DNA of 52,916 nt from Clostridiales bacterium (GTDB lineage: Bacteria > Bacillota > Clostridia > Lachnospirales > WRAX01), in the NCBI GenBank assembly GCA_031277225.1, contig JAITMQ010000003.1, forward strand, positions 1 to 52,916, in the 5' to 3' direction. Below are positions 39,907 through 47,523 of the stretch, piece by piece. Below the pieces are notes generated by a model that worked only from the letters and a program-made list of their open reading frames with translations, was not told the DNA's origin and did not search any database. Numbering within the stretch: the stretch's first letter is position 1; every line of letters starts with the position of its first letter. A program made the position numbers and the translations under genes.

Positions 39907-40926
39907 ATGGATTTTTTGAATATGGACCCGGGCACATTGACCCTAATTGTCGTTTTGGGCATAGTTGTATTTTTATTTTTAGTACTATTTTTCAATTTTA
40001 TCCCCGTGGGGCTGTGGATTTCGGCCATTTCTGCGGGCGTTAAAGTCAGCATTTTCTCCCTTGTGGGTATGCGCCTTAGGCGCGTTCGCCCCGCAAAGGT
40101 TATAAATCCCTTGATTAAGGGAACGAAGGCGGGTCTGGCCATAAGCCAAAACCAGCTGGAAAGCCATCTTTTGTCGGGCGGGCGCGTGGATAATGTCGTG
40201 GATGCGCTGATTGCCGCGCATCGCGCCAATATGGAGCTTAGTTTTGAGCGCGCCGCCGCAATTGACCTGGCCGGCCGCGATGTTTTTGAGGCCGTGCGTA
40301 TGAGCGTTATGCCAAAAATCATTGAAACGCCAATGATTTCGGCCATGGCGGTCAATGGTATTGAAATTAAGGCTTTGGCGAAAGTAACCGTGCGCGCGAA
40401 TATTGCCCGCTTGGTTGGCGGCGCGGGCGAAGACACCATAATTGCGCGCGTTGGCGAAGGAATTGTAACCACAATCGGTTCTGCCAAAAGCCATCAAGAA
40501 GTTTTGGAAAATCCCGATAGAATTTCGCAGACTGTACTTAATAAAGGCCTTGATTCGGGCACGGCATATGAAATTTTGTCAATTGACATTGCGGATATTG
40601 ACGTTGGCCGCAATATCGGCGCGGAATTGCAAATTGACCAGGCCGAGGCCGACAAGCGCATTGCGCAGGCCAAGGCCGAAGAACGCCGCGCCACCGCGAT
40701 TGCGCGCGAGCAGGAAATGAAGGCGCAGGTTGAGGAAATGCGCTCTAAGGTTGTTGAGGCCGAGGCGCAAGTGCCGCAGGCCGTCGCCGAGGCCCTTAAA
40801 TCGGGCAATATGGGCGTAATGGACTATCTCGCCATGCAAAACAAGCTGGCCGATACGAAAATGCGGGAAGGATTGTCGGCTATAAAGGTCAATTTGGGCG
40901 ATACTAAGGACTTGCCGATGGAGTAG
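39907..40926 (+). CDS. floA: Flotillin-like protein FloA (SPFH/UPF0365)
   Basis: [30 protein letters not shown]...[24 protein letters not shown]. Confidence 0.92.
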
Positions 40927-40937
40927 GAGGGATAGCA

Positions 40938-41102
40938 TTGTATAAACGGATGTTGTATCAGCTCTTAGCGGTGAGGCAAGATATGGAAAAAAGAGGGTTT
41001 GCTTCCGATATTTTAAATCAATATATTAATGAACTAGAAACGGAAATGGATGCCGGTGAAGCGGCCTATGTGCTTATGAAAGTGAAAAAATCGCAAGAAT
41101 GA
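40938..41102 (+). CDS. Possible 54-aa ORF downstream of floA
   Basis: TTG 40938 lies 7 nt after AGGAGG. The stop at 41100-41102 is followed directly by a terminator. The ORF is not in the track because it is under 60 aa. Confidence 0.35.
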   Translation: MYKRMLYQLLAVRQDMEKRGFASDILNQYINELETEMDAGEAAYVLMKVKKSQE

Positions 41103-41111
41103 CAGCCCCAA

Positions 41112-41139
41112 GGGGCGACCGCCCTCGGTCGCCCCTTTT
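41112..41139 (+). terminator. Rho-independent terminator built from the family A palindrome
   Basis: GGGGCGACCG-CCCT-CGGTCGCCCC followed by TTTT. Confidence 0.78.
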
Positions 41140-41173
41140 AATAGGGGAAATTTGGTGATTAGGAGGTTGTGCG

Positions 41174-41440
41174 ATGACATTGACGAGGATTAACGAAAGT
41201 ACCGAAATTACGGTAAATCAGGCGCGGAGAATGTATCCGGACAAATATATTTTCATGATAATTGACAAGCAAGTGGACTTTTCCGGCAATAATATCGGGC
41301 GTGTGATTTTTATTATGGATTCTAAGGAAGAAATTTACAATGTGGATATGGCGGAATTCGCTGGGCGTACAAAAAAAATTGTAGAAGGAATCGAAATTCT
41401 TAGAAGGCCGAGTATAGGGGGAATCAGCATTGAAGCATAG
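41174..41440 (+). CDS. 88-aa hypothetical protein, first gene of the retropepsin module (DUF5678-like?)
   Basis: ATG 41174 follows AGGAGG. It overlaps the protease gene by 11 nt. The resemblance to small partners of archaeal/cyanobacterial clan AA proteases is from memory only. Confidence 0.5.
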   Translation: MTLTRINESTEITVNQARRMYPDKYIFMIIDKQVDFSGNNIGRVIFIMDSKEEIYNVDMAEFAGRTKKIVEGIEILRRPSIGGISIEA

Positions 41441-41909
41441 CATAAAGCTGGAAGCAGGCAAGATAATTGTGCCTATGAATATCCAAGATGCCAATTTAAA
41501 AGACATGTCCGAGGTTGACTTTAAAGTGGACACTGGTTCGGATTATACAACGATTTCAAAAAAAGAATTGTATACGCTGGGATATTCCGCAGATTGGATT
41601 AAGCAAAATGCCATAAGAAACGACAGGGATGCCAAAACAGCCGACGGCAGCACAATTCCCATTTATTTTTTACAAATACCGAAAATGAATATATTGGGAA
41701 CCGAGGTTTCCAATATGCGCTTACATATTTTATTGGATGGCGATGGCGGGGCGGCAAGGGACTTAAACAATCTTTTGGGGCTGGATTTATTGCTGTCTTT
41801 CAATTATATGGTCAACAATGACGAGGATGAATTCATCATCCACAGAACAACAAAACCAAGCAAAACAAAGACTATTTACCCGGAAGTGCAACTATTTAAT
41901 CTTGATTAG
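41430..41909 (+). CDS. Retropepsin-like (clan AA) aspartic protease, cytoplasmic
   Basis: A single catalytic FKVDTGSDYTTIS (hh-D-T-G-S) and a downstream LLGLDLL (hhGxD) motif. No signal peptide. The size (159 aa) implies a homodimeric protease. Confidence 0.75.
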   Translation: MKHSIKLEAGKIIVPMNIQDANLKDMSEVDFKVDTGSDYTTISKKELYTLGYSADWIKQNAIRNDRDAKTADGSTIPIYFLQIPKMNILGTEVSNMRLHILLDGDGGAARDLNNLLGLDLLLSFNYMVNNDEDEFIIHRTTKPSKTKTIYPEVQLFNLD

Positions 41910-41918
41910 GAGGAGAAT

Positions 41919-43943
41919 ATGAAAAAATTTATTTTTGCAACAGCGGCTTTATTTGTATTATGTTTTGGGCTTGCGGTGCCGGTTTTTGGCATAGACGCCG
42001 CCCCACCGCCGGGTGTGCCGGACACAGGCCAAAACTTCACCCTAACCCTATCATCCTCGCCATACGAGGGCGGCCTAATGCGCTGGCGCACGCCGGATGA
42101 CACCGATTTTGGGCGCAATATAACCGAATTTTTCGGCGAAAACACTCGAATTCATTTGATGGCCGTGCCCGTCCAGGGCTGGGAATTCGTGGGCTGGTAT
42201 GAAGGGAATGCTCGAATTGACAGCGAAAGAGCGTTCACTTTCAACATAATATCAGACCGAAACCTCGAAGCAAGGTTTGTTCAAACGGGGCAGCAGCCTG
42301 CAACACCGCCAACACCGCCACCCGCAACGCCACCGCCAACCCCTGCACCAACACCACCACCAACCACGCCACCACCAACCACGCCGCCAACCCCACCCCC
42401 GACAACAACCGCCACCGGACGAGTTGTCGCCGCGGCACAAAGCTGGAATAGGATGGCATTATTGGATAATGGCGATTTATTCTCATGGGGCAGAAATGAC
42501 TTTGGCCATGTGGGCGACGGCACAACACAACCCCGCCACGAACCCGTTAAAATAATGGAAAATATTGTGGCCATTGCGGCGGGCGGCAATCATTCCTTGG
42601 CGCTTACGCGGGATGGTTATGTATATGGTTGGGGCGCAAATACCAGCGGTCAAGTTGGCGACTTTTCCGGGCATAGTGTCAACAGCCCCGCCAGAATAAT
42701 GGGAAATGTCAGGGCCATCGCCGCCGGTTCTACTTCCTCTTTTGCAATCACGACAGATAATGTCCTATGGGGTTGGGGTGCTTCTGCCTTGGGCGAATTA
42801 AGCGACCTTGCGAGGCAGCAATTGCAAGCAAGCGACCGTGTGCGTATAATGGATAATGTTGCGCAGGTTTCAATTTTATCCAATACCGTTAAGGCAGTCA
42901 GAACAGATGGGACATTGTGGGGCTGGGGCAGCATTATGGGAGCACAGATTTATATGAATACGATTAGGGCGGCAGGGGTTGAAGTCAGACAGCTTTCCAG
43001 ATGGCGCGACACCCCGCTTCTCTTTATTTCAACGCCTGTACAAATATTTGAAAATGTTGCCTATGTTTCAACAGGCACCCTCCACACCATGGCAATCACA
43101 ACAGACGGCGTTTTATGGGGCTGGGGCGCAAATCACCACGGCCAAATAGGAGATGGCACAGTCATAAGCAGGGCAGCACCCGGTCAAAGGTTTCATCCTG
43201 TCCGAATAATGGATAATGTGGTATCCGTTTCCACCCCTGCCGACATCGCAACCACGGCAATTACAGCCGACGGCTCTTTATGGGTTTGGGGATTCTCCGG
43301 AATTTTTGACTTTATCGAAGGCAGGGAATCAATTCCCACCCCCATGAGGGTTACGGAGGATATAGCCTCTATACCCGCCGAATCCTTAGCCATTACAACA
43401 CGCGGCGACTTATTGACCTGGACACCCATTTTGCATAGTGGCACATCTTGGTTCACAGGCGAACGGCAAGACCCAACACAGCCCGTAAGAATCGAATTCC
43501 CGATACAGGCGGGGCAGCCCTTGCACGCCACCGCAACAGCCGCGCCCTCCGCCCACAATGTCCGAATAAACGGCCAACCCGTGGCCTTGGCCGCTTTTAA
43601 TATTGGCGACAGCAATTTCTTTATGCTTCGCGACATTGCTTTTGCGCTAAACGGCACGGCAGGCCAATTTGAGGTGGCTTGGGATGGCGCGCGCAATGCC
43701 ATAAATTTGGTGAAAGGTCAAGCTTATACGCCCGTTGGCGGCGAAATGACGGCAGAGGGCGGGCAGGCCGCCACAGCCACGCCCACCACGGCCTCGGTGC
43801 TGGTAAACGGCCAACCCGTCAATTTGCGGGCTTATAATATAGGCGGCAATAATTTCTTCATGCTGCGCGACTTGGGCGAGGCTCTTGGTTTCGGCGTAGA
43901 TTGGGATGCCGCCACCGCCACTATACTAATTAACACAAACTAA
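41919..43943 (+). CDS. Secreted RCC1-repeat protein with an InlB-B-repeat-like N-domain, a Pro/Thr linker and two copper-amine-oxidase-N-like stalk domains
   Basis: Signal peptide; GWEFVGWY; a PT-rich linker; repeated (L/V)(W/Y)GWGAN..GQ(I/V)GDG blades; two C-terminal V.(I/V)NGQPV.L.A(F/Y)NIG..NFFMLRD repeats. Confidence 0.85.
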   Translation: MKKFIFATAALFVLCFGLAVPVFGIDAAPPPGVPDTGQNFTLTLSSSPYEGGLMRWRTPDDTDFGRNITEFFGENTRIHLMAVPVQGWEFVGWYEGNARIDSERAFTFNIISDRNLEARFVQTGQQPATPPTPPPATPPPTPAPTPPPTTPPPTTPPTPPPTTTATGRVVAAAQSWNRMALLDNGDLFSWGRNDFGHVGDGTTQPRHEPVKIMENIVAIAAGGNHSLALTRDGYVYGWGANTSGQVGDFSGHSVNSPARIMGNVRAIAAGSTSSFAITTDNVLWGWGASALGELSDLARQQLQASDRVRIMDNVAQVSILSNTVKAVRTDGTLWGWGSIMGAQIYMNTIRAAGVEVRQLSRWRDTPLLFISTPVQIFENVAYVSTGTLHTMAITTDGVLWGWGANHHGQIGDGTVISRAAPGQRFHPVRIMDNVVSVSTPADIATTAITADGSLWVWGFSGIFDFIEGRESIPTPMRVTEDIASIPAESLAITTRGDLLTWTPILHSGTSWFTGERQDPTQPVRIEFPIQAGQPLHATATAAPSAHNVRINGQPVALAAFNIGDSNFFMLRDIAFALNGTAGQFEVAWDGARNAINLVKGQAYTPVGGEMTAEGGQAATATPTTASVLVNGQPVNLRAYNIGGNNFFMLRDLGEALGFGVDWDAATATILINTN

Positions 43944-46908: not shown

Positions 46909-46938
46909 GCGCAATATTGCGTTGTGAGGAGGTTGAAT

Positions 46939-47523
46939 ATGTCGGTTTTAGCTTATCCTTTGTCAAAAAGGCATATGCCGCCGCGAACTAAGGAGATTAT
47001 TGGCGGCAAGGTTGTAATGATGGCCCCTGCGCGGGTTGCGCATCAAGATGCAGAGGTGAATCTTGTTGAGATTTTTCGTCGCTATTTGCGCGGAAAGCGT
47101 TGCAAAATCTTGACAAATGCCTATTTGCACCTAACGGACGAAGATAAATTCGTTCCCGATATTATGATTGTCTGCAATAGAAAGATAATCAAACCAAATG
47201 GCGTTTTTGGCGCACCCGACCTTGTTGTGGAAATTTTATCTCGCAGCAGTATGAGCAGCGACAGAAACGACAAAAAAGCGGTCTACGAAAAATGCGGCGT
47301 TAAGGAATATTGGATTGTAACCGCCGAAGCCCGCACAATTGAGGTTTATTTGCTGACAGACGGCAAATACCGCCTGGACAATACCTATGCCGCCATTGAC
47401 GAAATTGATAAAGAATTTATGACCGAAGAAGAAATAGAAAATATTGTTCATGAATTTAAAACCTCAATTTTTGACGATTTAATTATAAAAATCGAAGAAG
47501 TATTTGAAGATATGGACTATTAG
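46939..47523 (+). CDS. Uma2-family (DUF820) endonuclease
   Basis: KFVPDIMIV...APDLVVEILSRSS...DKKAVYEKCGVKEYWIV carries the PD-(D/E)xK-type Uma2 signature. ATG 46939 follows GAGGAGG. Confidence 0.85.
   Translation: MSVLAYPLSKRHMPPRTKEIIGGKVVMMAPARVAHQDAEVNLVEIFRRYLRGKRCKILTNAYLHLTDEDKFVPDIMIVCNRKIIKPNGVFGAPDLVVEILSRSSMSSDRNDKKAVYEKCGVKEYWIVTAEARTIEVYLLTDGKYRLDNTYAAIDEIDKEFMTEEEIENIVHEFKTSIFDDLIIKIEEVFEDMDY

Follow-up and report, generated by a model that had tools for sequence, protein, structure and literature searches.

A 52,916-nt stretch of DNA from a Clostridiales bacterium (contig JAITMQ010000003.1), here called the window as a whole and numbered along its forward strand, carries two overlapping open reading frames (ORFs) on the same strand, 736 bp in total, which encode a small partner protein and, downstream of it, a retropepsin-like aspartic protease. 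This two-gene pair is a conserved, mobile and multi-copy unit of termite-gut Firmicutes. As to its function, our tentative preference goes to the possibility that the pair is a toxin-antitoxin (TA)-like, or protease-inhibitor, module, in which a conserved and apparently disordered tail of the partner keeps the protease inactive. For such a module we infer that the two proteins would bind each other physically, that binding would inhibit the protease, that the freed enzyme would be toxic, and that there would be a trigger and a set of substrates. A first-pass annotation of the window had labelled the pair a candidate two-component module, composed of a cytoplasmic retropepsin-like protease and a small, translationally coupled partner, and this label holds. 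Its further idea of a TA-like or inhibitor/substrate relationship would fit the number of copies per genome, the unrelated flanks, the low GC content and the orphan partners described below.

Two refuting conditions named beforehand, concerning the conservation of the partner beside homologous proteases and the alignment of the DTG residues with a catalytic site, were tested computationally. With regard to the first, a partner homolog, truncated in one case, lies directly upstream in 16 of 16 protease-seeded loci, as established by tblastn and ORF tracing, while in the partner-seeded set a protease gene, or at least its beginning, comes next in 59 of the 74 copies for which some downstream sequence exists. 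The order of the genes is always partner and then protease, and the extent of their overlap is nearly constant, being 8 or 14 nt in 40 of 48 non-redundant complete pairs and 8, 11 or 14 nt in 41 of them; in each of three relatives inspected, the gene immediately preceding that of the protease encodes 87 aa and overlaps it by 8 nt. Partner and protease identities are correlated (r = 0.86 over 1128 pair comparisons), with the partner being the more diverged of the two in 77%, which indicates that both are inherited as a unit. In addition, the median ratio of nonsynonymous to synonymous substitution rates in the 48 non-redundant pairs, 0.22 for the partner and 0.12 for the protease, points to purifying selection on both genes as a stand-alone pair.

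The distribution of the pair is narrow. A search through GTDB, with each species represented by one genome, returned 12 loci, 11 of them in termite-gut Defluviitaleaceae metagenome-assembled genomes (MAGs) and one in an Oscillospiraceae MAG, with some MAGs carrying two to three copies. A partner-seeded scan of JGI metagenomes, for which a narrower partner alignment than the most diverse one was employed, added 78 further loci, on contigs whose names overlap those of the termite-gut MAGs. Collection scans of this kind rest on conserved peptide patterns, so that divergent copies are under-sampled. No further copy of the pair was found elsewhere in the window. Some loci show local multiplication: L020 (2240-3733) has one complete pair directly followed by another, with identities of 70% and 71%, L021 (726-1733) has three partner copies, one of them frameshifted, ahead of a single protease, and L042 (2610-3805) has one pair and a partial extra partner.

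The features of the window copy that are relevant to the argument are the following.

41110..41139, forward strand: intrinsic terminator, with a 12-bp GC-rich stem (41110-41121 paired with 41126-41137), a 4-nt loop and a U-run ending at 41139.
41161..41166, forward strand: Shine-Dalgarno sequence of the partner, AGGAGG, with a 7-nt spacer to the ATG (read from the sequence).
41174..41440, forward strand: partner gene, ATG start, 88 aa, acidic (isoelectric point, pI, 5.4); proposed inhibitor or antitoxin of the protease.
41174..41389, forward strand: partner residues 1-72, predicted compact alpha/beta core (AlphaFold2).
41390..41437, forward strand: partner residues 73-88, conserved C-terminal tail and proposed protease-binding segment (from model confidence and conservation).
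41416..41421, forward strand: ribosome-binding site (RBS) of the protease, AGGGGG, weaker and located within the partner coding sequence, 8 nt 5' of the TTG (read from the sequence).
41430..41909, forward strand: protease gene, TTG start, 159 aa, retropepsin-like, clan AA, pI 5.2.
41529..41540, forward strand: catalytic motif D34-T35-G36-S37 in the context FKVDTGSD (from the ApRick alignment and invariance in homologs).
41772..41786, forward strand: second retropepsin motif, L115-L-G-L-D119, of the hydrophobic-hydrophobic-Gly type, within LLGLDLL at residues 115-121 (from invariance in homologs).

The two ORFs can be read directly from the sequence and overlap by 11 nt (41430-41440), as annotated. 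The TTG start of the protease agrees with the N-termini of its homologs, and the length of 88 aa for the partner is backed both by homologs that are conserved from the first Met onwards and by an independent Logan assembly (L095), in which 88 aa are called as well. A protein database gene caller had proposed a partner of 69 aa instead (P0001); in the light of the same homologs and of L095, that call places the start too late. Upstream of the pair, the terminator that had been described as strong is indeed so, since its hairpin (41110-41137) folds with -30.2 kcal/mol (z = -5.03) and none of 200 shuffled sequences was as stable; it is absent from the list returned by a simple pattern scan. This terminator most likely closes a unit formed by nfeD, floA and orf54, a 54-aa ORF at 40938-41102 on the forward strand that starts with TTG directly after floA, is preceded by AGGAGG at 7 nt, is called in L095 too, and has no match in Pfam, NCBIfam, PADLOC or PHROGs. 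From the end of the terminator to the partner ATG there are just 34 nt, and the ATG of the next gene comes 9 nt after the protease stop codon. No Rfam family was found within 40500-42500. Finally, the pair is AT-richer than its surroundings, as had been noted: its GC content is 0.39 against a window mean of 0.49 (standard deviation 0.035), and 0.2% of equal-sized windows are that low.

The product of the second gene appears to be a genuine member of clan AA. In particular, the 159-aa protein exceeds the Pfam cut-offs for PF13975 (gag-asp_proteas; 30.4 bits, cut-off 28.2) and PF13650 (Asp_protease_2; 29.8 bits, cut-off 24.3), and a protease search retrieved 13 relatives, 36-48% identical and all of 154-163 aa, 11 of which carry a precomputed assignment to the PF13975/PF13650 families. 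Moreover, a profile of 14 homologs (the window protease and these 13) aligns over about 90 residues with the solved Rickettsia retropepsin ApRick (PDB 5c9b; E=1.3e-3). The alignment is in register, with 'fkvdtGad' lying against 'FMVDTGAS', in other words with DTGS/DTGA on the catalytic DTGA, and with LLG on LLG. With regard to the second refuting condition, then, the DTG aligns with the catalytic Asp of ApRick. Within the 14 homologs D34, T35 and G36 are invariant, as are L115, G117 and D119; in the 48 non-redundant copies DTGA or DTGS is found in 47 and LLGxD or LIGxD in 46. The assignment to clan AA on the strength of DTGS and the downstream LLGLD is thereby sustained and, as the catalytic apparatus shows no damage, the enzyme is likely to be active. 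Neither protein shows a hydrophobic segment or a signal peptide (over 19 residues, Kyte-Doolittle values peak at 0.73 or below), in agreement with the annotation of the protease as lacking an export signal; by these indications the enzyme is cytoplasmic, free-standing and retropepsin-like. Its AlphaFold2 model, built from a 14-sequence alignment, is mostly beta and of moderate confidence, with a predicted local distance difference test score (pLDDT) of 68.8.

At the level of families, the bit scores place the protease as a new and divergent member of the Pfam retropepsin-like families that falls outside TIGR02281, TIGR03698 and the B component of the PADLOC candidate system PDC-M08. Specifically, it remains below the NCBIfam cut-offs of TIGR02281 (clan_AA_DTGA; 23.8 bits, cut-off 57.95) and of TIGR03698 (clan_AA_DTGF; 14.6 bits, cut-off 57.35), and the latter result leaves the earlier lead towards the AF_0612 family without a match. 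The last residues of the protease (141-159, 41850-41906) form a conserved extension modelled with low confidence, which reads KPRYKFLPxQEINE in relatives and KTKTIYPEVQLFNLD in the window. This segment, with its aromatic/Leu-Pro dipeptide, could be an autoprocessing or auto-inhibitory element.

The partner, for its part, belongs to no described family or fold, to judge from profile searches and from its model, and its annotation as a protein of unrecognised family is borne out. The window partner has no match in Pfam, NCBIfam, PADLOC or PHROGs, and 39 diverse relatives searched against the same libraries gave noise-level matches only, with one member per family. The suggested lead towards DUF5678 (PF18929) was not sustained: the window partner does not match it at E<=1, and a single one of the 39 relatives does so at E=0.092, among 19 families matched by a single member. 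A profile of the partner family found no match at E<=10 among the sequences of solved structures. The partner profile, built from 14 sequences, retrieved 233 proteins, of which those listed are 87-122 aa long, mostly 87-89, and devoid of Pfam domains, and a HMMER search over 1.84 billion representatives yielded 92 partner clusters at 50% identity. Because only 92 clusters are found in a collection of that size, the partner can be described as a small orphan family. At protease loci, homologs are 22-32% identical to the window partner and align with it over the full length.

The AlphaFold2 model of the partner, from a 42-sequence alignment, has a mean pLDDT of 81.5. Residues 1-72 are predicted to form a core with the order strand-strand-helix-strand-strand-helix-helix-strand, after which confidence falls, with a mean pLDDT of 65 for residues 71-80 and of 42 for residues 81-88, and with all of residues 79-88 below 50. 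This last stretch is therefore predicted to be fully disordered, yet it is conserved: the tail reads RRPSIGGISIEA in the window and EPYPxIGNVVYHD in most Defluviitaleaceae copies, and across the wider partner family a hydrophobic-G-G-hydrophobic pattern is found, in which the G-G/N and the flanking hydrophobic positions are conserved. Foldseek searches with the model gave nothing significant in PDB (best E=1.1, template-modelling (TM) score <=0.35) or in BFVD (best E=0.37), the weak top matches being ferredoxin-like alpha/beta domains (TM <=0.35). Two more specific proposals were discarded. A ubiquitin-like or Phd/YefM-like fold, considered from the order of secondary-structure elements, appears among neither the Foldseek nor the Pfam matches. 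A tail mimicking the N-terminal strand of the protease, at the dimer interface, is not favoured either, as the best ungapped 7-mer similarity does not exceed that of shuffled tails (median z = -0.3).

Considering the genomic context, the copies per MAG (two to three), the unrelated flanks and the low GC content all indicate a module that is mobile, multi-copy and variable in its surroundings. The DNA flanking homologous loci is not alignable, and an AGGAGG-like RBS is the only element common to the upstream regions. The 93 neighbour proteins of 16 loci match 97 Pfam families (E<=1e-5), each with two members at most; among those listed, the ones with the most matches and the best scores are mostly housekeeping proteins, such as IMPDH, urocanase, tRNA-synt_1b (class I Trp/Tyr-type), EngA-type GTPase, MutL-type mismatch repair protein and SpoIIR, while PADLOC matches among neighbours are scattered single cases. 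Enrichment in defence islands, raised as a check by the first-pass annotation, does not emerge from these neighbours. Relatives of either gene were not found in IMG/VR viral contigs, GenBank phages or PLSDB plasmids, and across loci the pair is accompanied by no third gene, repeats, integrase, capsid or transposase. Because the flanks are not alignable, the neighbours are unrelated and phage or plasmid relatives were not found, the mobile unit is confined to the two genes.

In the window itself the pair sits between the nfeD-floA-orf54 unit with its terminator and a gene for a secreted RCC1/Cu_amine_oxidN1 protein, in a wider context of polA, an SBP_bac_5 protein, trpS, an S41 peptidase, UPF0029, Uma2 and YebC. 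The N-terminus of the secreted protein (41919-43943, forward strand, 674 aa) resembles a signal peptide, and the protein further contains a divergent InlB B-repeat, a linker rich in Pro and Thr, RCC1 repeats and, at its C-terminus, a Cu amine oxidase N-terminal domain; its gene is tightly packed against that of the protease and is linked to the pair in no other locus. The Uma2-family putative restriction endonuclease (46924-47523, forward strand; PF05685, E=1.2e-28) lies 5 kb downstream of the pair.

A further line of evidence is provided by loci at which one gene of the pair is damaged or missing. The 79 non-redundant full-length partners comprise 47 with a full protease, 12 with a protease running off the contig, 6 with a truncated protease, 9 with none and 5 that are unjudgeable, which leaves a testable subset of 62 (47 full, 6 truncated, 9 none). 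A solitary protease was not seen in any locus. The only reverse case is L016 (3803-5095), in which the partner is damaged while the start of the protease remains, the contig ending within the protease; there, an in-frame fusion joins the last 34 or so partner residues to a membrane-protein ORF of 394 aa, and the same contig holds an intact pair (L009) about 9 kb away. Hence loss looks asymmetric, with an intact partner staying beside a decayed or lost protease. Four distant members of the partner family were also recovered, one in a full pair (L097), one ahead of a truncated protease (L100) that ends after 110 aa and has DSG instead of DTG, and two solitary ones (L096, 2099-2371; L099, 1337-1651) with no protease or remnant nearby. 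The partner of L096 has a class II aminoacyl-tRNA synthetase gene on either side, with an overlap at the end of the first one. In some lineages the partner family may have a protease-independent role. At L022 (3257-3454) a short palindromic repeat, both strands of which encode the peptide GLDPQSHQ...GLRVKPAMT, follows right after the orphan partner, and it may represent an insertion similar to a repetitive extragenic palindromic (REP) element or a miniature inverted-repeat transposable element (MITE) at the place where the protease was lost.

On these grounds a working model of the TA-like module can be outlined. The partner would be made first and in excess over the protease, because it has the stronger RBS and start codon (AGGAGG and ATG, compared with AGGGGG and TTG) and because the overlap couples the translation of the two genes. 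Clan AA enzymes with a single domain have to form homodimers to be active, and the protease would accordingly need to homodimerise to build its active site. The tail of the partner would bind the protease and hold it inactive, and the requirement for a homodimer leaves two plausible routes of silencing: the tail could enter the cleft as a pseudo-substrate strand or, alternatively, act as a dimerisation block by capping the strands of the dimer interface. Depletion or displacement of the partner would then leave a free protease to cleave cellular or phage proteins. In favour of this TA-like arrangement, the predicted architecture of the partner, a folded N-terminal core followed by a disordered conserved tail, resembles that of many type II antitoxins, such a tail being the customary form of a neutralising segment that folds upon its target. 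Some paired or orphan copies, named further below, also have other TA- or Abi-type genes as neighbours.

Several points weigh against this reading. Literature searches found no retropepsin-like TA toxin; more generally, searches combining retropepsins with TA or defence systems, and searches on DUF5678, TIGR03698 and PDC-M08, found no experimental precedent, the sole connection obtained being the origin of the PDC candidates. The partner has no DNA-binding domain, as it matches no helix-turn-helix, ribbon-helix-helix, AbrB or Phd family, and no upstream operator or promoter is conserved across loci; autoregulation of the classical type II kind is consequently unsupported. The window copy has no evident promoter of its own in the upstream gap (41140-41173), squeezed as it is between the terminator and the RBS of the next gene, while among homologous loci a TATAAT hexamer is present within 150 nt upstream in 18 of 43, against 2 of 37 and 3 of 36 control stretches. 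In the usual TA pairing an acidic antitoxin meets a basic toxin, whereas here both proteins are acidic (pI 5.4 for the partner and 5.2 for the protease). The top PDB matches of the protease model (pLDDT 68.8) in Foldseek are mostly of the pepsin type and not significant (E>=0.12, TM <= about 0.4). The asymmetry of loss, moreover, is biased by the way in which loci were seeded and by the protease being the larger mutational target, and the 0-1 losses among 12-14 protease-seeded loci are not significantly off expectation. Lastly, the solitary distant partners could mean that the partner has an independent function.

Among the other explanations, the one that survives best, even if we regard it as unlikely, is that of a processing pair, with a regulatory or maturation role rather than one in addiction. 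The partner would be a substrate or precursor of the protease, with the tail as cleavage site, or else a positive cofactor or adaptor that recruits substrates. A tail both disordered and strongly conserved would suit such a role, an enzyme and its substrate would explain co-inheritance and coupling equally well, and the partner lacks any antitoxin-type domain. Classical retroviral protease cleavage sites contain an aromatic-Pro dipeptide, and the E-P-[YF]-P-x-I-G tail of most relatives has one too, a likeness to be taken as a lead only. Neither the window copy (RRPSIGG) nor the L007 and L020 types have this dipeptide, however, and it is for this reason not a feature of the family. In addition, intact partners survive where the protease is truncated or lost, several divergent copies per genome amid unrelated flanks would be unusual for housekeeping maturation, and the pair has no constant companion gene that might encode a target or an exporter.

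A role in anti-phage abortive infection (Abi), which amounts to a specialised form of the TA-like model, seems quite improbable. The partner would sense a phage factor, or be inactivated by it, and the freed protease would cut host or phage proteins. The mobile, multi-copy nature of the module would be in line with this, as would the weak match of the window protease to PADLOC PDC-M08B (E=1.2e-4, 20.1 bits, profile positions 27-122 of 128) and the few loci that adjoin Abi-, TA- or PDC-type genes. The latter include copies beside MNT/HEPN-like (L026), PIN-like (L064), AIPR (L004) and AbiEii (L096, a faint Pfam match) genes. On the other hand, none of the 13 closer protease homologs matches PDC-M08B at E<=0.01, none of the 39 partners tested matches any PADLOC model meaningfully, most neighbours are housekeeping genes and no defence family recurs among them, and the window copy is found among polA, trpS, nfeD and floA and not in a defence island. 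As for individual neighbourhoods, three orphan partners were judged by eye: that of L026 (3320-4016) adjoins an MNT/HEPN-like pair, that of L064 (3881-4526) a PIN/VapC-like gene, itself preceded by a small gene, and a Bro-N-like gene, and that of L019 (898-1708) nucleotidyltransferase-like ORFs.

The remaining idea, that the protease is a remnant, or a domesticated maturation enzyme, of a larger mobile element or virus, as the first-pass annotation had also suggested, draws on the best Pfam match being the 'gag-polyprotein putative aspartyl protease' family and on the low GC content and variable location, but it is hardly credible, given that viral, phage and plasmid collections hold no relatives, that conservation stops at two genes with no element genes or repeats alongside, and that selection on the two genes, as a pair standing alone, is purifying.

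To return to the TA-like module, its significance depends on what the partner does. To our knowledge, free-standing cytoplasmic bacterial retropepsins have no established role, and few proteins are known to inhibit aspartic proteases. Should the partner indeed be an inhibitor or antitoxin, aspartic proteases would join the effector classes of TA and abortive-infection modules, and a naturally evolved silencing of a retropepsin-type enzyme, by pseudo-substrate or by dimerisation block, would be open to study. A stronger formulation is more doubtful, namely that the partner represents the first protein dedicated to inhibiting a bacterial retropepsin, with a fold absent from PDB and a tail that occupies the cleft or blocks dimers, and that the pair founds a TA or abortive-infection class with a cytoplasmic aspartic protease as effector. 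General importance is in any case limited by the narrow distribution, which covers termite-gut Defluviitaleaceae, Oscillospiraceae and metagenomes and amounts to the 92 clusters mentioned above.

Compared with known systems, the pair shows partial resemblances to several and identity with none of those considered. With the AF_0612-type proteases (TIGR03698) the window protease shares its small size, its free-standing nature and its clan, while its score lies below the cut-off of that family, just as the partner does not match DUF5678. A closer formal parallel is PADLOC PDC-M08, an untested two-gene candidate (FAM_03167>>FAM_00414, A then B) from a guilt-by-embedding screen (Payne et al., bioRxiv 10.1101/2024.01.29.577857). 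That system too is a two-gene cassette, and the window protease resembles its B component weakly, along almost the entire B profile; nevertheless, the B match is confined to the window copy (0 of 13 homologs), no match to PDC-M08A was found in 39 partners, and a defence-island context is lacking. As both components are required, these profile searches place the pair outside PDC-M08.

Among characterised enzymes, Rickettsia APRc/ApRick (PDB 5c9b; PMC4140852) and the Pseudomonas aeruginosa Rlo enzymes (bioRxiv 10.1101/2025.03.18.643919) are reported to be membrane-anchored or secreted. The window protease likewise consists of a single retropepsin-type domain, with a D-T-G-A/S and a hydrophobic-hydrophobic-Gly motif, and falls in the same Pfam families. 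Unlike those enzymes as reported, it has no signal peptide or membrane segment and is coupled to a dedicated partner, and the similarity is remote (E of about 1e-3).

The logic proposed for the pair, with a small protein silencing one protease in the cytoplasm, would be analogous to that of proteases with a dedicated inhibitor, such as staphopain-staphostatin, SpeB-Spi and yeast proteinase A with IA3. Staphostatin and Spi shield the cell from secreted cysteine proteases, and the eukaryotic IA3 is disordered until it binds its aspartic protease and helical when bound. In contrast to this likeness in logic, no similarity of sequence or fold between the partner and these inhibitors was detected.

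With type II TA systems the resemblance extends to the genetic organization, that is, two small, co-directional and overlapping genes with a small acidic protein encoded first, built of a folded core and a disordered conserved tail, as well as to the multi-copy occurrence, the unrelated flanks, the low GC content and the orphan first genes beside decayed second genes. It differs in that the would-be toxin is an aspartic protease, that no DNA-binding or antitoxin fold is recognised in the partner, and that no operator is conserved. We know of no toxin class formed by aspartic proteases, and the effector class represented by the pair would be new for TA or protease-inhibitor-like modules.

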